Notes under the pieces: model-generated | Databases searched by the model: none | Told to the model about the DNA's origin: nothing | The model's input: the letters and a program-made list of their open reading frames with translations, nothing else | Translations under genes and position numbers: made by a program | Shown: one piece after another, positions 8,801-52,175 of the stretch | Layout: each line of letters opens with the position of its first letter | Numbering within the stretch: the stretch's first letter is position 1 | Sequence record: MT764208.1 | Strand: one strand, 5' to 3' | Length of the DNA: 64,000 nt | From: Escherichia phage JEP8

Positions 8801-10387
8801 ATGAAAACTACCAAAGAACTGATGGAAAAATGGTCCCCGCTGCTGGAGAACGAAAAACTGCCGGAAATCGCAACTGCGTCTAAGCAGAAACTGGTTGCTA
8901 AAATTCTGGAATCTCAGGAAGCGGATTTTGCTGTAGACCCGATCTATAAGGATGAAAAAGTTGTTGAAGCATTCGGTGGCTTTATCGCAGAAGCCGAAGT
9001 TGCTGGCGACCACGGTTATGACGCATCTAATATCGCGGCTGGTCAGACTACCGGTGCAATCACCAACGTAGGTCCGGCTGTTATCGGTATGGTTCGCCGT
9101 GCTATCCCTAACCTGATTGCATTTGATATTTGTGGTGTTCAGCCGATGAGCACTCCGACTAGCCAGATCTTTGCAATCCGTTCTGTATACGGTGGCGATC
9201 CGCTGAAATCTGGTGCTCGCGAAGCATTCCATCCGATGTATGCACCTGATGCGTTCCATAGCTCTCTTGCTGCTAAAGAGGCAACTGTAGGTTCACCAAC
9301 TGGTACTGCATTCGCTAAACTAACTCTTTCCCAGGCTATCGCTGCTGGTGATATCGTATATCACACCTTCGCAGAAACTGGTATTGCTTATCTGCAAAAC
9401 GTAACTGGTGATTCTGTAACACCACAGAAAGTAGGTAGCGAATCCGAAGATGAAGTAGTAATGAAGCTGATTGAAGAAGGTAAATTGGCTGAAATCGCTT
9501 TCGGTATGGCTACTTCCATTGCCGAAATTCAGGAAGGCTTTAACGGTTCCAGCAATAACCCGTGGGCTGAAATGTCAATGCGTATTGACAAACAGGTTGT
9601 TGAAGCGAAATCTCGCCAACTGAAAGCCCGTTATTCTATCGAAGTTGCGCAGGATCTGCGTGCTGTACACGGTATGGATGCTGATGCCGAACTGAATGCT
9701 ATCCTGGCTAACGAAGTTCTGCTGGAAATCAACCGTGAAATCGTTGACGTTATCAACTTTACCGCTCAGGTTGGTAAAACTGGTATGACTCAGACCGTTG
9801 GTTCTAAAGCTGGTGTATTTGACCTGCAAGACCCGATCGATACTCGCGGTGCTCGTTGGGCTGGTGAATCCTTCAAATCTCTGATCTACCAGATCGACAA
9901 AGAAGCTGCTGAAATCGCTCGTCAGACTGGTCGCGGTGCGGGTAACTTTGTTATCGCTTCCCGTAACGTTGTAAACATTCTGGCTTCTGCTGATCAGGGT
10001 ATCAGTCTTGCTATGCAGGGTGCTGCAAAAGGTCTGAATACCGACACCACTAAAGCTGTTTTCGCTGGTGTTCTGGCTGGTAAGTACAAAGTGTTCATCG
10101 ACCAGTATGCTCGTCAAGACTACTTCACCGTAGGTTACAAAGGCGACAACGAAATGGATGCTGGTATCTACTATGCTCCGTATGTTGCTCTGACTCCGCT
10201 GCGTGCAACTGACCCGCAGTCTTTCCACCCGGTTCTGGGCTTCAAGACTCGCTATGGCATCGGCATTAACCCGTTTGCAGACAGCAAATCCCAGGCACCG
10301 TCCGCTCGCATCACCTCCGGTATGTTGAGCAAAGACAGCGTAGGTAAAAACGCATACTTCCGTCGTGTATGGGTTAAAGGTTGCTAA
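8801..10387 (+). CDS. 23: major capsid protein (gp23-like)
   Basis: 528 aa; near-colinear match to T4 gp23 (…MVRRAIPNLIAFDICGVQPM…YFTVGYKG…GKNAYFRRV…). Confidence 0.97.
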   Translation: MKTTKELMEKWSPLLENEKLPEIATASKQKLVAKILESQEADFAVDPIYKDEKVVEAFGGFIAEAEVAGDHGYDASNIAAGQTTGAITNVGPAVIGMVRRAIPNLIAFDICGVQPMSTPTSQIFAIRSVYGGDPLKSGAREAFHPMYAPDAFHSSLAAKEATVGSPTGTAFAKLTLSQAIAAGDIVYHTFAETGIAYLQNVTGDSVTPQKVGSESEDEVVMKLIEEGKLAEIAFGMATSIAEIQEGFNGSSNNPWAEMSMRIDKQVVEAKSRQLKARYSIEVAQDLRAVHGMDADAELNAILANEVLLEINREIVDVINFTAQVGKTGMTQTVGSKAGVFDLQDPIDTRGARWAGESFKSLIYQIDKEAAEIARQTGRGAGNFVIASRNVVNILASADQGISLAMQGAAKGLNTDTTKAVFAGVLAGKYKVFIDQYARQDYFTVGYKGDNEMDAGIYYAPYVALTPLRATDPQSFHPVLGFKTRYGIGINPFADSKSQAPSARITSGMLSKDSVGKNAYFRRVWVKGC

Positions 10388-30477: not shown

Positions 30478-30509
30478 GTTTGATTCTCCTTTCGTTTCGG
30501 TATGGGTGT

Positions 30510-30538
30510 ATTATAGGGGATCGATGATCCCCTGTCAA
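30510..30538 (-). promoter_or_regulatory. PeSL-type early promoter (TTGACA-GGGGATCatcGATCCCC-TATAAT)
   Basis: perfect -35 and -10 hexamers with 17-nt palindromic spacer; approximate. Confidence 0.6.
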
Positions 30539-30546
30539 CAAATTTT

Positions 30547-31083
30547 TTAGTTATTTTTTAATTGCTCATCTTGCAATAGGGCAATCACATGCTGGCGATG
30601 TTCTTCCGATTGAGGCACACCGAAAAAGTTTGTTTTGTAGAAATACTCTAATCGGTCTTCTCGTGTGCTCTCTTCCATCATGATCGCGGGTAGTCCGAGA
30701 TTTCGGAAACGTCGCTTTTCTGCTGGCGTAAAATCACTGTAATACAACATAGAATCATCATTACAAGCAATGCTAAACTCATCCTTCATAAAGGAGAATA
30801 TTGCGTTTAAACGCTGTTTACCGTCCACGATTTCGATCTCATAGCGAGAGCCATCATCAATCTTAGCCATTGCGATAGCACCAACCGGAAAATCATTAAT
30901 CAGGTTTTCGATAAACATACGTTTGTTTTCGGTGTCCCATACTAAAGGACGCTGATAATCTGGGTTCATGTTGATATAGCCATCTTCTAACCATGCATCA
31001 TAAACAGAGATGACAAAGTTTTTAGTATTGGTATAGTAACGGCGTTTAGGCGTTAAACGGCGTTTAGGCGTTAAACGGTTCAT
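30547..31083 (-). CDS. DUF262 / ParB-like nuclease-domain protein
   Basis: start placed at ATG preceded by AGGAG (MNRLTPKRR…); hallmark motifs …NPDYQRPLVW… and …EIVDGKQRLNAIF… (DGQQR-like); lacks any C-terminal HNH/DUF1524 module. Confidence 0.65.
   Translation of the reverse strand: MNRLTPKRRLTPKRRYYTNTKNFVISVYDAWLEDGYINMNPDYQRPLVWDTENKRMFIENLINDFPVGAIAMAKIDDGSRYEIEIVDGKQRLNAIFSFMKDEFSIACNDDSMLYYSDFTPAEKRRFRNLGLPAIMMEESTREDRLEYFYKTNFFGVPQSEEHRQHVIALLQDEQLKNN
31041..31076. repeat. exact 18-bp tandem duplication (GGCGTTTAGGCGTTAAAC x2) inside the DUF262 gene
   Basis: in-frame; encodes duplicated peptide LTPKRR-LTPKRR at the protein N-terminus. Confidence 0.8.
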
Positions 31084-31084
31084 G

Positions 31085-31414
31085 TTATAGTCTCCTGAAT
31101 GGATCATCACGTAAATCAATATCTTTTAAGAACTCATCCCATGAATGGCGGATGTTGTTCTTAATTCTCCAGATAAGAGCAGGGATTGAACGCTCTCCCA
31201 TCTGGAAGTATGGATCATATGATCCGTATGCCCAATATGCTACTACAATTCCACAATCAGCGCAATAGTATTCTATTTCACTTGCTGGCGACCAAAGTCC
31301 ATCAATATGATCGGTGATCTTGCTTTCGATGTTATGGCTATGACAATCAGGGCAACGGATGCAATGACCTTGTTTATCGTAATTTGACGTTAGCGAATAC
31401 TTAAACAATCTCAT
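31085..31414 (-). CDS. zinc-ribbon protein (two CxxC pairs)
   Basis: 109 aa; …CIRCPDCHSH…CADCG…; translationally coupled (TAATG) to the upstream methyltransferase-like gene. Confidence 0.45.
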   Translation of the reverse strand: MRLFKYSLTSNYDKQGHCIRCPDCHSHNIESKITDHIDGLWSPASEIEYYCADCGIVVAYWAYGSYDPYFQMGERSIPALIWRIKNNIRHSWDEFLKDIDLRDDPFRRL

Positions 31415-32130
31415 TATAGATCCTTATTTGCTTCAAATACTGCCTTTGCGAATCCTCGCGGGGTAAGTGACCTTATAGTCTTTGTTCTGGTTCCTTTCCC
31501 GCCTAGCTTAGAATGCTGTTTACTGTACCCTTTATTAATCTGCAACGGTTTCTTTTCTGGCATTATAAAGCCTTGTCCGGTCCATAAGCAAGTCTTTTTC
31601 GGGTACATATCACGGGCGGCAATATACTCAGGAAACGTAGGATGCTTATCATCTTCCGGCAAATAACCGCCATATTCCCACGGATGGAACATGTAATCAG
31701 GCTTACGCCACATGCTAGAGATAACGCTTACAGGATTCTCTATCATGTAGGGAACTCCGAGCCATTCACCCAAATAAGCGGTTATTTTAGCTGCCCGTAC
31801 ATCATGAACTTGAATCAATGGTCCTTGTTCTCGTTTCTTTCGTTCAAAGTGCGCAGCGCCACTAACAGCTAAATTGGTGCACGGTGGGAATGCAAAGATA
31901 ATATCCGGTTTCCCCCATTCAAGGTCCATTGCTCTTTCCAGCCAGTTCAAATCAATCCAGGTGTTTACATAGGTAATGTTTGGATGTTCAAATCTGGTAT
32001 TATACTTTTTGTATGTACCGTGGTCGGCGTCATCCGCATTAAAGCAGACTACCTTATGACCTGCTTTAGCCCATTCTAGCCCCATTATCCCCGATCCGTC
32101 AAAGTTGCAGAATATTAATTTTTGTTTCAT
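31414..32130 (-). CDS. C5-cytosine methyltransferase-like protein, truncated (catalytic motifs I, IV, VI only)
   Basis: 238 aa; motif I FCNFDGSGIMG, motif IV PDIIFAFPPCTNLAVSG (PC Cys), motif VI YMIENPVSV (ENV-like); colinear with the M.HhaI N-terminal half; no target-recognition domain or motifs IX/X visible. Confidence 0.6.
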   Translation of the reverse strand: MKQKLIFCNFDGSGIMGLEWAKAGHKVVCFNADDADHGTYKKYNTRFEHPNITYVNTWIDLNWLERAMDLEWGKPDIIFAFPPCTNLAVSGAAHFERKKREQGPLIQVHDVRAAKITAYLGEWLGVPYMIENPVSVISSMWRKPDYMFHPWEYGGYLPEDDKHPTFPEYIAARDMYPKKTCLWTGQGFIMPEKKPLQINKGYSKQHSKLGGKGTRTKTIRSLTPRGFAKAVFEANKDL

Positions 32131-32372
32131 ATACGACCCTTTAACCCAGCACAGATTTTAGTCGGTTCTTTACCGTGCCACATTAAGTAAAGTCCGTTAA
32201 TGCGACCTTGTTTTGTGTGTGATTCTTTTCTGATCTTCTTATAGTGTCGTGCTTCCTCAACCGATTGTTTAGAATACCAATCATAAAGGAAGAGGCACAA
32301 AGGCCAACCATTAGCGGCCTTAATGCAGTTATTAAGAAATTCCTTATTGCGTTTAATTAATTTTCTTTTCAC
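32127..32372 (-). CDS. hypothetical protein (81 aa)
   Basis: basic small ORF overlapping neighbours by 4 nt on both sides (operon member). Confidence 0.35.
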   Translation of the reverse strand: MKRKLIKRNKEFLNNCIKAANGWPLCLFLYDWYSKQSVEEARHYKKIRKESHTKQGRINGLYLMWHGKEPTKICAGLKGRI

Positions 32373-32620
32373 GCTGCCCCCATTGGTTTGATAGTAACAG
32401 AATCTAAAAGACCTTTGTTAGCCAGTTCGCGGCAAGTTTTCAGATCCGCAACTTCCCAGCCAGCCGCAATCAGGTTATCAATCAGGCTGTTAGCAACTTC
32501 TTCGCTCATGAAAGAGCACTGTTTGCCGATGGTGTAGCGTACACGCTGTAATTTCAGTTTACGGAAGCCTTTAACGTTCAGGTCTTTAGCGATTTTCTTT
32601 GCGGTTTCGATGTTAGCCAT
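32369..32620 (-). CDS. hypothetical protein (83 aa), first gene of cassette
   Basis: ORF directly downstream of a PeSL-type promoter. Confidence 0.4.
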   Translation of the reverse strand: MANIETAKKIAKDLNVKGFRKLKLQRVRYTIGKQCSFMSEEVANSLIDNLIAAGWEVADLKTCRELANKGLLDSVTIKPMGAA

Positions 32621-32660: not shown

Positions 32661-32689
32661 ATTGTAGGGGAGTTATCCTCCCCTGTCAA
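32661..32689 (-). promoter_or_regulatory. PeSL-type early promoter (TTGACA-GGGGAGgataaCTCCCC-TACAAT)
   Basis: minus-strand; palindromic 17-nt spacer; approximate. Confidence 0.55.
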
Positions 32690-33299: not shown

Positions 33300-33569
33300 T
33301 TAGATATTTTCAGAAATAAATTTTAAAACTTGACGTAAATGTTTCTCATCTTTGATAGTCGCCGGAAGTTCTTCTTTTACTTCCTGTGCAAGATAGATAT
33401 TTCCGTTCCAAGTGAAAGATCCGTCTTCGTTTACGCGATAGCTGAACATCCACTCGCAATCATTTTCGATTTCATATACACACAGAAGAGTGTAATCTTC
33501 AAAGCTATTGAGTTCAAGGTCGAAGCCGTGACGTTTTGCAAAGTTGGTAGTGGTTTTAGTCAGTGCCAT
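33300..33569 (-). CDS. hypothetical protein (89 aa)
   Basis: ORF behind PeSL promoter. Confidence 0.4.
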   Translation of the reverse strand: MALTKTTTNFAKRHGFDLELNSFEDYTLLCVYEIENDCEWMFSYRVNEDGSFTWNGNIYLAQEVKEELPATIKDEKHLRQVLKFISENI

Positions 33570-38221: not shown

Positions 38222-39710
38222 CGAATACCTCTTTTACTGTATTTGCAGTGGTCTTGTCGTAGCGAATACGTTTGATGATTGGGAGAAATAAAGAGAACTC
38301 CGGTTCATCTTCTTTACGTGATTTGCTGCGAATGTACCCGTTGCATGTCATCTCAATGACTTTTCCAATCAGGTTATGACGGTCAGCCCATAACATTTCT
38401 CGGTCGAGTTCATTTCGACTATCGAACGGAATTACACGTTCGATACCATCATCACCTTTTTCGGTTGTGGTGTCGGTCAATCCCGATCCGGTGTTAGTCA
38501 TCATTCGTCCGCACGCACTACGGACAGTAAAACCGCCTACCTTATTAGGATCTTTACTATGCGGATATACATCAACAATTTCCGCGTCGAAGTCAATCAC
38601 TTCTTTAAATTTAACCTGATCTTTACTGCGACGATCTTCAAATACACCATGCAGATTTTTAAGGATAATACCTTCTAATCCCATGTTTACATAGCGATGA
38701 TATACTTCGCGAGCTTCATCGAGATTGTTAACTACGGTATTTTCGATTATCTGAACACGAGGATCGTTAAGTTCTTCAACAATCTGTTTTAGTTCTTCGA
38801 ATCGATCTTTATACTGCTTCGTTGCTTTCTCGTTACCGTAGTACACATCACGGTCGATAACATCCCAGACAGTGTAAACAATACATTGGGCTTCTTCTTT
38901 TGGAATAGTTCCTTTCAGTGATTTGTTGAGGATACCATTTCCGGTCTGACGATCTGCAACAACGGATTCTTTCACTGCTTCCGCTACTGGCGTTAATGGC
39001 ATTTCCTCTTCTTCAAATATCCATGACAGAGTACCATCATAAACGCTCTCAACGAAGTTCTGCGCTGGTGTTTGCGAAAGGGTAGGCATATATACCAATT
39101 CGCCATCTAGAACAATTCCACGGCCTCGTAGACGCTCTAAAACCGCAAACAAATCATCAAGCCCTTGATAGGTATTACCTGAGCGGGTATAGATTGCTAA
39201 TGTTTCCCCGTCAATATCAGCCATACCACGAGCGCCATCGCTTTTAAGTTGTGCATACGCCGGATACTTGATATTAGCAATAGTCTTATCAGAACATGAC
39301 GATGCAAGGTGGCACGGTTGCTGAGGGATCAGTTTCTTCCATACCTTGTTTGCAGTGGTAGCGGAACAGCCGCATTCCAGATCACGATTCAGGACCATCA
39401 TTGCAACTTTAGCATCATCCTCTGACAAGCAAGTCAGAGTATCGGTAACTAGTTGTAATGCTGCATTACCAGTTACTTGACGCGTGGCAAGTTTATTTTT
39501 AAAGACCTGTAATGCACCGGATAAAGACAATACAGACGAATAGCGAGATGGTTTATCGTATTTCTTTACGCCAAACGTAACCTGTTTGCAATATGCCAGA
39601 TAAAAGCATTCTTTCAGCGTTTCATTGCTCGCGGATTCTTTCAGAATCTTTTCTTTCAGCGATGTTTTGTCTGTTGCTGCAAGCTGATTAATGATATTAA
39701 GAATTGACAT
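38214..39710 (-). CDS. 30: ATP-dependent DNA ligase (gp30-like)
   Basis: start placed at ATG after GAGGTG; adenylation motif KSDGARG and colinear similarity to T4 DNA ligase. Confidence 0.93.
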   Translation of the reverse strand: MSILNIINQLAATDKTSLKEKILKESASNETLKECFYLAYCKQVTFGVKKYDKPSRYSSVLSLSGALQVFKNKLATRQVTGNAALQLVTDTLTCLSEDDAKVAMMVLNRDLECGCSATTANKVWKKLIPQQPCHLASSCSDKTIANIKYPAYAQLKSDGARGMADIDGETLAIYTRSGNTYQGLDDLFAVLERLRGRGIVLDGELVYMPTLSQTPAQNFVESVYDGTLSWIFEEEEMPLTPVAEAVKESVVADRQTGNGILNKSLKGTIPKEEAQCIVYTVWDVIDRDVYYGNEKATKQYKDRFEELKQIVEELNDPRVQIIENTVVNNLDEAREVYHRYVNMGLEGIILKNLHGVFEDRRSKDQVKFKEVIDFDAEIVDVYPHSKDPNKVGGFTVRSACGRMMTNTGSGLTDTTTEKGDDGIERVIPFDSRNELDREMLWADRHNLIGKVIEMTCNGYIRSKSRKEDEPEFSLFLPIIKRIRYDKTTANTVKEVFDV

Positions 39711-41596: not shown

Positions 41597-41800
41597 TTAA
41601 CCGTATACGCGAAAGTATTCTACTGATCCGTCGCTATACTGTTTTACATTGAATGTATTCACACCATGACCATTGCTCATAATGACATATACACTACGAC
41701 GCTCATCGCTAAACGGGTTAACTGGTGCGGGTTCAATTTCAACATTAAAACCACGTTTAGCAAGTGCTTCGCCCAATTGCTTGAGTTTATCGGTAAACAT
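41597..41800 (-). CDS. hypothetical protein (67 aa)
   Basis: small ORF between pseT and cd. Confidence 0.4.
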   Translation of the reverse strand: MFTDKLKQLGEALAKRGFNVEIEPAPVNPFSDERRSVYVIMSNGHGVNTFNVKQYSDGSVEYFRVYG

Positions 41801-42678
41801 TAAAAGTCTCCGTAGTTAACCTGAAAACATTCTACACCAATTGCGCGGTACATGTCAACCACTTGATCACGGTCATCTACTGCCAACACAACATGATAAC
41901 GCGGTGCAATTTCAGAGAAGAAAATCTCTTTCTTCACTTCATGGTCAGGACGACGATCATTAGTTTCACGTTGAAAGTGAACACTAGGTTCAATACCCTG
42001 TTCACGCAACCATTGCAGAGTATCTTCTTCGCAAACATCCTCACGCCCTGAGCATGTAATGATACGATAGCCATTATCACGATACAGTTTAAGCATTTCG
42101 ATCACTTGCGGACGTGGTTTATCTTCTTTGACCTTTGTCCAGTCAAACGGATGACGACCGCCCTTATCCGCTAATGTCCCATCAATATCAAAGATCACTG
42201 CCTTTGGCAGCATGGTATTCGGTTTGTATACTTCTTGACCCATATATTCCTGCATCAGATAAAATTGGTTACGCAAATGAGAAAGTGGGATTGCTTTCTC
42301 TCCACGATAGAAATTACGTTTCTTTAGTGTCTCGAATGATTCATTGAACACTTGTTCAGTATACACCGCGTTAAATTCTTTTGCAAGTTCTTTGTAGAAT
42401 ACACGATGTTTTTCTTTCAGGTTAGTATCAGAGATAATGATACTTAATCCGCGTGATAGAGTCTCACGAGCAATCATTCTCTGAATAGACTCTACCAGCT
42501 TTTCTTTTTCCTTAGTATACTTGTATTTCAAATGTGAGTCAACACCAAACAACATAAGACGAAGGTCATCACGATTAACATTACGATAATTACTAAACCG
42601 TTTACATGTCTCCATAGCCCATGTAGTTTTACCGGACCCAGAACAACCAACGGTTAAAATCACTTCACATTTCGGCAT
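41800..42678 (-). CDS. pseT: polynucleotide 5'-kinase / 3'-phosphatase
   Basis: start placed at MPKCEVILTVGCSGSGKTTW… (P-loop) with ATG overlapping the upstream stop; HAD-type phosphatase motif IFDIDGTLA; matches T4 PseT. Confidence 0.9.
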   Translation of the reverse strand: MPKCEVILTVGCSGSGKTTWAMETCKRFSNYRNVNRDDLRLMLFGVDSHLKYKYTKEKEKLVESIQRMIARETLSRGLSIIISDTNLKEKHRVFYKELAKEFNAVYTEQVFNESFETLKKRNFYRGEKAIPLSHLRNQFYLMQEYMGQEVYKPNTMLPKAVIFDIDGTLADKGGRHPFDWTKVKEDKPRPQVIEMLKLYRDNGYRIITCSGREDVCEEDTLQWLREQGIEPSVHFQRETNDRRPDHEVKKEIFFSEIAPRYHVVLAVDDRDQVVDMYRAIGVECFQVNYGDF

Positions 42679-43130
42679 TATTTCTCCTTCGGTTTGCACC
42701 GTTCCTCATTAAGTTCTTTGCGATAATAACACATGATCAACTTACTTTCAAGTGTATATCTCTTAATATCCGCAAGCCAGACTCTGAATTTTTGGGAGTC
42801 CTCCCACGACATAGAAACTCTAGGTTTACCGTCTATTGTATCCACTTTCAGGTCAATGTCAACTTTTTCTATTGGTGCTGGTAGTGGAGGATGTAATTTC
42901 GGTTCCTGTGAATAATAGTCCATTGTACACGAAGAAAGCGCAAATACAATAGGCACAGCGAAGACATGGATTATGGCGGTCTGAAAATTCTTATGTGCTT
43001 TCTTAAACATCCAGTGTATCACGAAAATTGAAAACACCATCAGGATAATAATGCTTGCACCTATCCACAGATAATCAACCAGATTAAAATGGCTTATCTG
43101 CTCTTGTGTAGGCAATATTTCTATGCTCAT
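42678..43130 (-). CDS. putative o-spanin (outer-membrane lipoprotein)
   Basis: contains signal-peptide-like MFKKAHKNFQTAIIHVFAVPIVFALSSC with lipobox LSSC; true start ambiguous (ATGA-coupled M1 at 43130 versus internal Met about 43010). Confidence 0.45.
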   Translation of the reverse strand: MSIEILPTQEQISHFNLVDYLWIGASIIILMVFSIFVIHWMFKKAHKNFQTAIIHVFAVPIVFALSSCTMDYYSQEPKLHPPLPAPIEKVDIDLKVDTIDGKPRVSMSWEDSQKFRVWLADIKRYTLESKLIMCYYRKELNEERCKPKEK

Positions 43131-43450
43131 TTAGTAGCCTCCTTTAATTCTTCGGTAAACTCCTTAAATGAGTCATTAAGCTGTTTCTCTACCAACTTGG
43201 GTTTTTGTGCGACTACATAGCCTCGTGTAGCGTCTTTCATTGCTTTGTTTTGTTCTTCTGCAAACTTAGTTCTTATCCCGTACATCTCCTTTTGTAGTGA
43301 GTCTACGACCTTCATCTTTTCATCTGTCTTTTTCTTATACTCTGTAAATTCCTGATTCAGTCGATCTACCTCCTTTTTATTTTCCCACCACATATTTCCA
43401 CCTACCCCCAGCAACACAGAGATGATAACAATGTATATCAGCTTTGACAT
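43127..43450 (-). CDS. putative i-spanin (N-terminal TM helix plus coiled coil)
   Basis: start placed at MSKLIYIVIISVLLGVGG…; K/E-rich helical C-terminal part; position equivalent to T4 pseT.3. Confidence 0.5.
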   Translation of the reverse strand: MSKLIYIVIISVLLGVGGNMWWENKKEVDRLNQEFTEYKKKTDEKMKVVDSLQKEMYGIRTKFAEEQNKAMKDATRGYVVAQKPKLVEKQLNDSFKEFTEELKEATK

Positions 43451-43461
43451 ATTACCCCCAA

Positions 43462-43488
43462 CGACAAAAGGCGGGGAACTAGCCCCGC
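43462..43488 (-). terminator. stem-loop / weak terminator between rnlA and the spanin genes
   Basis: GCGGGG-aactag-CCCCGC followed on minus RNA by CUUUUG. Confidence 0.4.
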
Positions 43489-43494
43489 TTATTA

Positions 43495-44664
43495 TTACCA
43501 ATCAATCTTATCAGCCGGAATCAGTTTCTTATAATTCCGTAGATAGTAAGTTTTCATTGAATCCAGAATACGGTCATAATCAAGACCATCAAATGCAATC
43601 ATCAGACACATGAAAATATATGCTTGTGCATCACCATGTTTACGCGATTCGATAGTCGCATTGGATGCATATGTCTTTCTATCTTCACCCGCGTGTGCGT
43701 TATAAAACTCTGTTGCTGTCGTAAAGGCATTGCGAAGAATAGACCTGAATGCTTCCTCGAATAGCTCGATTCGTTCCAGTGCTTCCGGTTCGCCTTCATA
43801 TGCAGCACGCAAATCATCGGTTTCGCTTTCTACGACATAGTAGATCAGGTTATTAGGAAACATCGATGTGTTTTTAATGTTATGCACACCAATATACCAT
43901 TCACTCTTCACTTTGAACAGTTGACCGTCTTTAGTGCGTGCAACAATTCCTTCGATACCTTCTGCGGTCCGAACTTCATCAAGAATATTGCTAAAACGCG
44001 CTGAATCAACCTGTAACGCATTTACCAGATGAGGACGTAGGATTGAATCGGCGAATAGCATTTGATGCGGTACATACTCTCCTGTGACGTTATGGCGTAC
44101 ATTCAGAAGTGTTAGCGACGGTTCAGAATATTCTACAACAATTCGGTTGCTGGGTGCTGTATATTCAAAGTTGAAAGTATAATCAGACCCAATATCGGCG
44201 ATCTTAGCGCGTAGATCCGCATACTTCTCGGAATACAGAAGACCGTTTGCTCTCTCTGCCTGGCTTGAGTATAAGGCCGCTTTAGACTTCAACTGAACAT
44301 AGCCGTTATCAATGTATGTGCTTACTAGACTACCGTCCATTTTGTCCATGACCATTTCCACATCTTCCGGCTTAAAGCGAGCGCGATCATTCTCGCCTAA
44401 ATTAAAAAACTTCTCCATAGGACGAGATGCAATGCGGACCGGACTACCTTTATCGTCAATTTCAAACATGATCCCGCGACACTCTAACGCATCTGGTTTA
44501 TTCCACATTTCCGGTTTGCTCAAGTACAGATAACTAAAAATGCGCATACGGGTTTGCATCGCCGTAATTTCATCTTTGTAATAGAACGTATCAGATCCGT
44601 CACATAGTGCCATCAGATTTTTGAACAATGCTAAAACTTTTTTGTTGTTTTCTTTTGTTGACAT
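43495..44664 (-). CDS. rnlA: RNA ligase 1 (gp63-like)
   Basis: 389 aa; …PDALECRGIMFE…VRIASRPMEKFFNLGEN… and adenylation-lysine context KMDGSL match T4 Rnl1. Confidence 0.9.
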   Translation of the reverse strand: MSTKENNKKVLALFKNLMALCDGSDTFYYKDEITAMQTRMRIFSYLYLSKPEMWNKPDALECRGIMFEIDDKGSPVRIASRPMEKFFNLGENDRARFKPEDVEMVMDKMDGSLVSTYIDNGYVQLKSKAALYSSQAERANGLLYSEKYADLRAKIADIGSDYTFNFEYTAPSNRIVVEYSEPSLTLLNVRHNVTGEYVPHQMLFADSILRPHLVNALQVDSARFSNILDEVRTAEGIEGIVARTKDGQLFKVKSEWYIGVHNIKNTSMFPNNLIYYVVESETDDLRAAYEGEPEALERIELFEEAFRSILRNAFTTATEFYNAHAGEDRKTYASNATIESRKHGDAQAYIFMCLMIAFDGLDYDRILDSMKTYYLRNYKKLIPADKIDW

Positions 44665-45061
44665 AATTTGTGTTCCATTCTGGTTTAAATTTTGTGATCA
44701 AAACAGGTTCTTCGATATCGGCAGTGCTTATAATATCCTTACCCGTTGGATTCTCAATATATAACTCAAAGCACTGGCGGTAATAGAATGTTACTGTCTT
44801 ACCTTCCTCTAGCGCCTTATGAATATTCTTACTCTTGCGAGTATCCGCTGTTGGTGTTTGTCTGTTAATGCTAGTCCGGTAATAGTTGATCCGCTTTCTG
44901 AGATTGACAGTCTGACCAATGTATACCAGTTCATCATCAACTACAATAGCGTAAAGAACATTTAAACGGTTCTTCTGAGGCGGCAGAATCACATCACCAT
45001 CTTTACACTCTAAACATGAATATTTAACGAATCCATAGTTTTCTATTAGCTCATTAATCAT
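44600..45061 (-). CDS. denA: endonuclease II (GIY-YIG family)
   Basis: 153 aa; …NVLYAIVVDDELVYIGQTVNLRKRINYYRTSINR… closely matches T4 EndoII; overlaps rnlA start by about 65 nt. Confidence 0.85.
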   Translation of the reverse strand: MINELIENYGFVKYSCLECKDGDVILPPQKNRLNVLYAIVVDDELVYIGQTVNLRKRINYYRTSINRQTPTADTRKSKNIHKALEEGKTVTFYYRQCFELYIENPTGKDIISTADIEEPVLITKFKPEWNTNYVNKRKQQKSFSIVQKSDGTM

Positions 45062-50920: not shown

Positions 50921-50944
50921 GGGGGCTTTCGCCCCCTTTTGTTT
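50921..50944 (+). terminator. plus-oriented intrinsic terminator-like hairpin between td and nrdA
   Basis: GGGGGC-tttc-GCCCCC followed by TTTTGTTT on the plus strand although flanking genes are on the minus strand. Confidence 0.4.
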
Positions 50945-52175
50945 ATACTGCCATTTGAGCGGTGATCGCTGGATGGCTTTGATAGTTGTGAATTTTAAAG
51001 TCTTTCGGAGTCTTTGTCAATACCTCATCTAAAGATTTAAATTCCGGCAACTCGATTGTTGGTTTATCAAACGGAACACGGCTTAACTGTTCCATAACTT
51101 GATCAAAATGGTTTTTGTAAATGTGAGTATCTCCACCAGAGAAAATCAGTTCTCCTACCTCAAGGTCACACATTTTAGCTATGATGTGAGTTAACAGCGC
51201 ATAGCTGGCGACGTTAAAGGGCAAGCCCAAAAAGCTGTCTACGCTTCGCTGAAACCACATACAAGACAGTTTACCCTCATTGACATAGAATTGCACGAAC
51301 GGATGACATACACCTAATACAGCATTATGTGTTCCTTGTACGTTCCATGAGTCAATGATGATACGTCGATCCGTTGGATTGTTTTTAATTTGTTCAATCA
51401 CGTTTTGTAACTGGTCTTCCCAAATCTTCGGGCGATAGACATATTCTTCATCGTCTTTAGTGCTCGATGTGTCTACGTCCATACTAGCAAAGATCGTGGT
51501 ATCGGGTGCTAAAATATCCCCACCCAGATAATCACTATCAAGCAGATAACCGAAATAACCATCATCTACCCATTCCTGGAATCCCCACAAGCAATATGCA
51601 TCATTAACAAAATTAGATTGAGTCTTCCAGTGATCTGCTACTAAGAATTGATTATATTCAGAATCAAACTCTTCATAACGCATACCACGCCAGATAGCAC
51701 ATAAACGGTCTTCTGTGTCGTTGGTTGGCGTAAAGTCTTCTACCCACGGGTGTTTAAATGTATGTGTATATTTGCTCTTAACGCGCTTAATTTTGATTTC
51801 ACCGTGTGGATGAATCGGTTTGCGTCGCCATGCCATACCATACATATTGCCAACATTATAGCCGTTGAATCGTAGCGGATTCTTTTCTTTCATATCAAGA
51901 CAGTTGCCGCGCCAAATGTCGAAGGCTTCTTCGTCAAACTGACCGCGTGTAATTTCCTGTAATCGACGGCGGTCAAGTGATCCCTCCATAAACCATAGCA
52001 ACTCGCCAATTACAGAGGCTGTAGCCATCTTTTTAGTGGTCAGTAATGGGAAACCCTTGCTTAAATCAATTCGCATCTCTGCGCCGAATTTAGAGAGCGT
52101 ACCTACCCCCGTGCGGTCTTCACGAGGCCAGCCATTATCAAGAACATCACGCAATAGTTTCAAATATTCTTTCAT
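50943..52175 (-). CDS. td: thymidylate synthase (ThyA/Td type) with a large internal insertion
   Basis: 410 aa; TS motifs …DRTGVGT…, …NPTDRRIIIDSWN…, catalytic …VCHPFVQFYV…, …FQRSVDSFLGLPFNVASYALL…; about 115 extra residues between the …MYGMAWRR… and …DQLQNVIEQIK… blocks. Confidence 0.9.
   Translation of the reverse strand: MKEYLKLLRDVLDNGWPREDRTGVGTLSKFGAEMRIDLSKGFPLLTTKKMATASVIGELLWFMEGSLDRRRLQEITRGQFDEEAFDIWRGNCLDMKEKNPLRFNGYNVGNMYGMAWRRKPIHPHGEIKIKRVKSKYTHTFKHPWVEDFTPTNDTEDRLCAIWRGMRYEEFDSEYNQFLVADHWKTQSNFVNDAYCLWGFQEWVDDGYFGYLLDSDYLGGDILAPDTTIFASMDVDTSSTKDDEEYVYRPKIWEDQLQNVIEQIKNNPTDRRIIIDSWNVQGTHNAVLGVCHPFVQFYVNEGKLSCMWFQRSVDSFLGLPFNVASYALLTHIIAKMCDLEVGELIFSGGDTHIYKNHFDQVMEQLSRVPFDKPTIELPEFKSLDEVLTKTPKDFKIHNYQSHPAITAQMAV

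Follow-up and report, generated by a model that had tools for sequence, protein, structure and literature searches.

The window analysed here is a stretch of 64,000 nucleotides from Escherichia phage JEP8 (MT764208.1). It belongs to Krischvirus, the RB49 group, sharing 97–99% nucleotide identity with RB49, Phi1, GEC-3S, TB34 and others. On its minus strand lies an early unit of five genes (Table 1), in the order orf83, orf81, a gene for a compact protein of the phrog_757 family that resembles cytosine-C5 methyltransferases (C5-MTases), a zinc-ribbon gene and a DUF262/GmrSD_N gene. The unit is headed by a sigma-70-type early promoter and closed by the next promoter downstream, and promoters are annotated in GEC-3S at positions matching both.

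As an earlier reading made from the sequence only had assumed, the MTase-like ORF is a real gene rather than a chance reading frame. It matches phrog_757 ('DNA methyltransferase') over its full length (residues 1–237, E = 8.1e-91), has 7,322 homologues at E ≤ 1e-3 in a set of 5.8 billion proteins, is conserved in at least 55 Krischvirus genomes at 97–99% nucleotide identity, and overlaps both neighbours at its start and stop (ATGA, TAATG), an arrangement indicating translational coupling. The gene travels without a fixed partner. No adjacent cognate restriction endonuclease was found in Krischvirus, T1-like or rV5-like contexts; orf83 and orf81 do not adjoin the MTase-like gene in the T1-like and rV5-like lineages, and the zinc-ribbon and DUF262 proteins show no conserved partnership with it there.

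The DUF262 gene is co-transcribed with the MTase-like gene in Krischvirus only. Its product comprises DUF262/GmrSD_N without a nuclease domain and matches the N-terminal parts of the PADLOC defence proteins NsnA (6.5e-20) and PD-T4-2_A (5.8e-12); it may act on GmrSD-type enzymes as a modulator or a decoy. At the 5' end of this gene, an 18-bp unit (AACGGCGTTTAGGCGTTA) is tandemly duplicated (window 31038–31073), giving RLTPKR-RLTPKR in the protein, and is present as a single copy in the phages TB34 and SAP.

Table 1. Features of the JEP8 window and motifs of the MTase-like protein (window positions)
Feature	Position	Strand	Details
Early promoter heading the five-gene unit, sigma-70 type	32661–32689	−	TTGACA-17-TACAAT, 11/12
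orf83, upstream small ORF	32369–32620	−	83 aa
orf81, upstream small ORF	32127–32372	−	81 aa
Compact C5-MTase-like ORF (phrog_757 family)	31414–32130	−	238 aa, 27.4 kDa, pI 9.1, ATG start
Motif I FDGSG, putative SAM-binding loop	32089–32103	−	residues 10–14
Motif IV PPCT, putative catalytic nucleophile Cys84	31876–31887	−	residues 82–85
Motif VI ENPV	31729–31740	−	residues 131–134
KKTCLW on beta-7, at the position of canonical motif VIII (QxRxR)	31582–31599	−	residues 178–183
RSLTPRG, resembling motif IX (RxLTxRE)	31453–31473	−	residues 220–226
Zinc-ribbon protein	31085–31414	−	109 aa
DUF262/GmrSD_N-domain protein, last gene of the unit	30547–31083	−	Pfam E = 8e-20
Next promoter, closing the five-gene unit	30510–30538	−	perfect 12/12
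rnlA	43495–44664		Pfam RNA_lig_T4_1 and T4_Rnl1_C
Two spanin ORFs	43127–43501, 42678–43130		abut rnlA; spanin annotation from GEC-3S
pseT	41800–42699		after the spanin ORFs

The fold of the protein is that of a class I SAM-dependent methyltransferase, closest to C5-MTase catalytic domains. The sequence-only reading had pointed to an FxGxG motif, a catalytic PC dipeptide and an ENV-like motif. FDGSG, PPCT and ENPV are all in place, but the first glycine of FxGxG varies outside the clade of the JEP8 protein, and the family consensus of motif I is (F/Y)-D-x-(S/T)-G. A low-confidence loop after PPCT (residues 86–104) matches the mobile catalytic loop of C5-MTases. The reading saw the motifs as colinear with the N-terminal half of M.HhaI-type enzymes, but the protein is not such a half: it is a whole catalytic domain, which reaches the motif IX-like RSLTPRG and ends 12 residues further on with a conserved Ala-Asn235.

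The distal part of this domain departs from the canonical plan. In canonical C5-MTases, the arginine of the motif VIII pattern QxRxR contacts the flipped cytosine. Neither this pattern at beta-7 nor the motif X sequence GNxV is present in the JEP8 protein; judging from sequence, two conserved arginines, R142 and R220, might substitute for the motif VIII arginine. Likewise absent is a variable target-recognition domain (TRD) between motifs VIII and IX. In its stead the protein has a strongly basic C-terminal tail (residues 186–238, 53 residues, pI 10.6), in which the roughly 34 residues separating the motif VIII position from motif IX (186–219) are basic and highly conserved, not variable. Compared to the PF00145 enzymes M.HhaI, M.HaeIII, E. 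coli Dcm and prophage 3g7u, the JEP8 protein is about 90–230 residues shorter, offers only this short stretch where they carry a real TRD, and has K-x-T-x-x-W in place of QxRxR. Its PF00145 match reaches 15.2 bits against a gathering threshold of 22 and covers residues 10–100 (motifs I–IV) only. PADLOC returned a weak Type II MTase match (E = 3.6e-4), an NCBIfam search gave no match, and neither did a PDB search with the single sequence; with the family profile, the best PDB match was M.HaeIII at E = 0.79. Because the Pfam threshold is not reached and motif VIII, motif X and the TRD are missing, the protein is best described as a compact variant of the C5-cytosine DNA methyltransferases, rather than a plain member of the canonical family. 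Its identity to the catalytic domains of DNMT3A and DNMT3B is 12–17%. The DNMT3 enzymes form oligomers with DNMT3L and read CpG partly via dimer-interface loops, whereas the JEP8 protein is a stand-alone phage protein without regulatory domains.

The small size is a family trait. An exhaustive profile search of 1.84 billion representatives returned, at E ≤ 1e-3, 1,993 clusters defined at 50% identity (889 at 1e-10), and nearly all of the best 150 of the 1,993 combine a length of 210–260 aa with coverage of the whole profile. Conservation was counted in 45 divergent homologues (30–53% identity). Cys84 and Glu131 are each kept in 44/45 and Asn132 in 43/45; Pro133, Pro150, Tyr176, Trp183 and Pro224 are found in every one, and Lys178 and Thr180 each in 43/45. 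The residue following beta-2 (motif II) is acidic (Asp) in 41/45, but is Asn31 in the JEP8 protein.

The gene occurs in 1,487 of 50,697 phage records (about 3%), among them 575 from Escherichia, 521 from Klebsiella and 107 from Salmonella phages. Annotations vary between 'DNA methyltransferase', 'C-5 cytosine-specific DNA methylase' and, in BASEL, 'Dcm-like C5 cytosine methyltransferase'; the family is already catalogued and named in databases, phage collections and some 1,500 phage genomes. Its members are 58–62% identical among this T4-like phage, T1-like phages and the rV5-like SSE121, and the MTase-like gene and one unrelated small ORF are all that the T4-like, T1-like and rV5-like neighbourhoods have in common. 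Another small gene exchanged across unrelated phage lineages is an 89-aa early ORF (window 33300–33569, minus strand), which shares 66% identity with an early ORF of a T1-like Salmonella phage (contig L007, 3717–3986). Like T4/T2 Dam, T1 Dam and the 'Dcm-like' genes of BASEL Drexlerviridae and Vequintavirinae, the MTase-like gene is early, lacks a cognate endonuclease, is mobile and is found mainly in Enterobacterales phages; the BASEL genes are themselves members of the phrog_757-type family (H44, H47). In contrast to the anti-restriction orphan phage MTases, we found no activity, target site or protective phenotype reported in the literature for the compact family.

There is hardly any doubt that the ORF is a real gene whose product has a C5-MTase-type fold and intact catalytic residues. 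That Cys, Glu and Asn are nearly invariant across the family speaks for catalysis rather than for a dead binding protein, and the enzyme is probably active. In one homologue of 563 aa (P0249), the MTase-like module is fused to a D12-class N6-adenine DNA methyltransferase, which favours DNA as the substrate; we consider DNA a reasonably likely one. By analogy with Dnmt2, which carries every DNA C5-MTase motif yet methylates tRNA, the protein might instead be an RNA cytosine-C5 (or uridine-C5) methyltransferase. Its target would then be an RNA of the host or the phage in the early phase of infection; tRNA, for instance, could be shielded from host anticodon nucleases. We judge an RNA substrate unlikely.

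Whether phage DNA is open to such an enzyme depends on its cytosines. The sequence-only reading had observed that rnlA is followed directly by the spanin genes without an alc-like ORF, and had seen in this the arrangement of a T4 relative that keeps ordinary cytosine. Both observations hold. The coordinates leave no space for alc between rnlA, the spanins and pseT in the window, and GEC-3S is annotated alike. Gene 42 and the glucosyltransferases, to which the same reading had drawn attention, are not at their syntenic positions in GEC-3S: the beta-gt/gene 42 position (uvsX to gene 43) holds a single 62-aa ORF and nothing else, and the alpha-gt position (genes 47 to 55) two small ORFs and nothing else. 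Published work describes Krischvirus as hmC-, alc-, denB-, denA+ and dCTPase+ (PMC12115623 Table 4), RB49 and the krischviruses as containing cytosine (PMC4041780, PMC6563267), and homologues of hmCMP synthase and glucosyltransferase as absent (PMC13390438). Cytosine DNA and the lack of alc and the hmC genes in Krischvirus are correct and already published.

A denA-like GIY-YIG endonuclease and a gp56-like protein (weak dUTPase_2 match) are kept (window 44600–45061, minus strand; GEC-3S 9669–10187), the endonuclease being retained although the phage DNA has ordinary cytosine. The window also carries the nucleotide-metabolism genes for dCMP deaminase, td and nrdAB. The thymidylate synthase ORF (50943–52175, minus strand) encodes 410 aa, and its Thymidylat_synt Pfam match is split in two by an in-frame insert of about 140 aa that has no Pfam match of its own.

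TB34 and SAP encode exactly the MTase-like protein of the window, and RB49 a version 98% identical to it; this identity newly links published negative modification data to the protein. TB34 DNA showed no detectable modified nucleoside by HPLC/MS, and it resisted BrxU, which cuts 5mC-DNA, both in vivo and in vitro (PMC13390438). HpaII and NheI, two enzymes that cytosine methylation blocks, both digested RB49 DNA from E. coli B (PMC4041780 Fig S1). These data exclude methylation in bulk, modification at the nucleotide level and general methylation of CCGG, and any methylation must be sparse. Although DH5alpha, the host used for these phages, is dam+ dcm+ and the phages have a Dam-family enzyme of their own, the published analysis lists no minor methylated base, so the HPLC/MS assay bears on abundant modifications only. 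Of the earlier suggestion that the enzyme acts on the phage genome, bulk methylation has to be given up, while sparse methylation is compatible with the published data. Given DNA as the substrate, methylation is very likely to be sparse and site-specific.

The lack of a detected product on virion DNA would also fit a protein that does not methylate at all, but sequesters SAM, occupies DNA, or traps or decoys a host defence protein. The missing canonical motifs VIII and X agree with such a binder, as does the finding of the BASEL study that C5-cytosine MTases, abundant in Drexlerviridae, show no simple correlation with restriction resistance. However, a binder has no need of near-invariant catalytic Cys, Glu and Asn, and the residues of the SAM pocket are conserved too. 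We regard the catalytically dead binding protein, one of the options in the sequence-only reading, as improbable.

The phage SAP poses a different problem. Its DNA was reported to be fully modified to hmC/glucosyl-hmC, though Krischviruses lack gene 42 and glucosyltransferases (PMC13390438). The MTase-like protein could account for this if it took the first step of a post-replicative hypermodification (5mC to 5hmC to glycosylation), or if, like CmoX with Cx-SAM, it transferred a non-methyl group. But SAP (OZ034687.1) is 99.96% identical to the unmodified TB34 (OX001802.1) and, since the MTase-like protein is identical in both, it cannot alone explain the difference in modification. No TET/JBP-like or glycosyltransferase partner adjoins the gene in the lineages examined, HpaII cuts RB49 DNA, complete replacement of cytosine usually arises at the nucleotide level, and the 'differences' between SAP and TB34 are mostly TB34 assembly errors, as described below. 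CmoX itself, a phage DNA cytosine-C5 carboxymethyltransferase (PDB 8yf3; PMC12783734), is a protein of 333 aa with a TRD (GC motif), typically encoded with the Cx-SAM synthase CmoA and CmoY homologues; the JEP8 gene has no such neighbours, and TB34, with its identical protein, shows no modified base. Hypermodification or non-methyl transfer by this protein is highly improbable, and a mixed lysate, or else a different locus, is worth considering as the source of the SAP modification. Methylation of free dCMP or dCTP before incorporation, also raised in the sequence-only reading, would suit just the small size of the protein, with dCMP deaminase, td and nrdAB encoded in the same window, and has next to no probability given the canonical cytosine of TB34 DNA and a motif IX and basic tail that suggest a polymer substrate; known nucleotide-level C5 modification is the work of thymidylate-synthase-family enzymes with folate, not of SAM-dependent C5-MTase folds.

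A SAP–TB34 difference in the MTase-like gene was looked for and rejected, the nearby differences being a 79-bp duplication and homopolymer indels. The duplication (SAP 39624–39702) is a tandem repeat of an intergenic early-promoter/hairpin element just downstream of the DUF262 gene; its single-copy equivalent lies at about 30479–30546 in the window. It creates a 38-aa ORF, SAP_052, is absent from TB34, the window and GEC-3S, and is the only confirmed structural difference between SAP and TB34 in the aligned 6-kb stretch.

A pointer to a target site came from the remaining SAP–TB34 differences, which were taken from Table S5 of PMC13390438 and checked against the whole SAP genome (165,332 bp). 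From SAP to TB34, all 14 substitutions turn the central base of CCCGG into T, giving CCTGG, with no other substitution in 165,332 bp; they affect 14 of 32 CCCGG/CCGGG sites (44%), and two were confirmed directly in the TB34 record. Among 49 indels or complex variants in TB34, 39 are deletions in homopolymers of at least 4 bases, one deletion splits the gp29 gene into two CDSs, and the window and GEC-3S side with SAP at 19/19 testable indels. SAP was sequenced on Illumina, and the same laboratory routinely uses native-DNA MinION R9.4.1 with Guppy; we deduce the TB34 platform from the error profile and that laboratory's later methods. The TB34 assembly looks like an error-prone native long-read consensus, in which the CCCGG changes seem to be miscalls, not mutations. 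Most of the Table S5 'variants' are TB34 assembly errors, and the real genetic differences are far fewer than listed. Motif-specific miscalls of this kind inflate the apparent differences between isolates and can mislead comparative analyses.

We rejected true 5mC deamination as the source of the C-to-T changes in TB34, given dozens of homopolymer frameshifts in essential genes and independent genomes that match SAP. At a palindromic CCGG core, real deamination would hit the cytosines of both strands, whereas all 14 changes lie on the central base pair. In independent genomes, S-to-W polymorphism at CCNGG is about 4-fold above background, a figure confounded by synonymous third positions of Pro codons and left out of the argument for that reason. 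A deamination footprint in the form of a CTNGG/CCNAG excess was not seen, CTTGG/CCAAG itself being depleted.

When consensus errors in native nanopore data cluster at one motif, they typically point to modified bases. DH5alpha methylates GATC, CCWGG and the EcoKI site, but not CCSGG. If the second C of CCSGG carried 5mC on both strands, a Dcm-trained basecaller would read CCWGG; the miscalls of the two strands would meet at the central base pair, and the 79 genuine CCWGG sites of the genome would stay error-free. The error signature tentatively suggests an enzyme specific for CCNGG or CCSGG that methylates the second C, though the errors affect only 44% of the sites and could instead be a basecaller or polisher artefact; we hold this specific site to be possible but less likely than not. 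Methylation of CCSGG/CCNGG would equal about 0.1–0.3% of cytosines and block about 10% of HpaII sites, amounts compatible with the published TB34 and RB49 data. Each of the four CCNGG pentamers is far rarer than expected (O/E 0.37–0.42, z −7 to −10), whereas CCGG is not depleted (O/E 1.13). The motif is under selection in this lineage, but depletion alone does not separate restriction avoidance from methylation. The signature is a new and testable pointer to the target site.

Altogether, these results lead us to favour, by a modest degree, a stand-alone (orphan) enzyme that is expressed early: a compact, phage-specific kind of SAM-dependent cytosine-C5 DNA methyltransferase that methylates sparsely and probably serves anti-restriction. 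A complete catalytic domain, with the basic stretch of about 34 residues standing in for the target-recognition domain, would deposit 5-methylcytosine at specific sites of the replicating phage DNA, and host DNA would inevitably receive it as well. Such sparse 5mC could give portable protection from the restriction enzymes of enterobacterial hosts. At CCSGG/CCNGG it would add protection against SsoII, Ecl18kI, StyD4I, EcoHI and EcoRII-type enzymes. A bolder version, which we hold to be possible but doubtful, is that the protein is the smallest known autonomous sequence-specific C5-MTase, reads a CCSGG/CCNGG-type site in a new manner, via its conserved basic C-terminal stretch and perhaps as a dimer, and forms a one-gene shield against restriction enzymes of the EcoRII/SsoII family. 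If so, the shield would be widely exchanged, being carried by about 3% of sequenced phages, and native nanopore assemblies would already show its trace in systematic CCCGG-to-CCTGG miscalls.

The TRD-less architecture is described here explicitly across some 2,000 clusters. Should the protein be active, it would set the lower size limit for sequence-specific DNA C5-methyltransferases and show how a site is read when the usual recognition domain is lacking, a matter of interest to enzyme engineers and developers of epigenetic tools. Its gene would then be a common mobile anti-restriction gene of therapeutic-type coliphages and Klebsiella phages, bearing on host-range prediction. If inactive or irrelevant, it would be merely another annotated orphan methyltransferase.

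Other short motifs stood out in these genomes. CCAAG/CTTGG is the most depleted 5-mer (O/E 0.27), and GGGCC/GGCCC does not occur in the window or in SAP, where about 24 would be expected; both are strong signs of restriction-site avoidance. GATC is frequent, with 352 occurrences in the window. The insertion-type errors of TB34 form a second motif-specific class: 8/8 fall at TAGACC/GGTCTA, affecting 8 of 51 sites, and a further modified motif may lie behind them. In the window, TAGACC and GGTCTA occur 7 times each. Besides the MTase-like protein, the phage has one other methyltransferase, which belongs to the D12 class of N6-adenine enzymes (GEC-3S BN201_0064).
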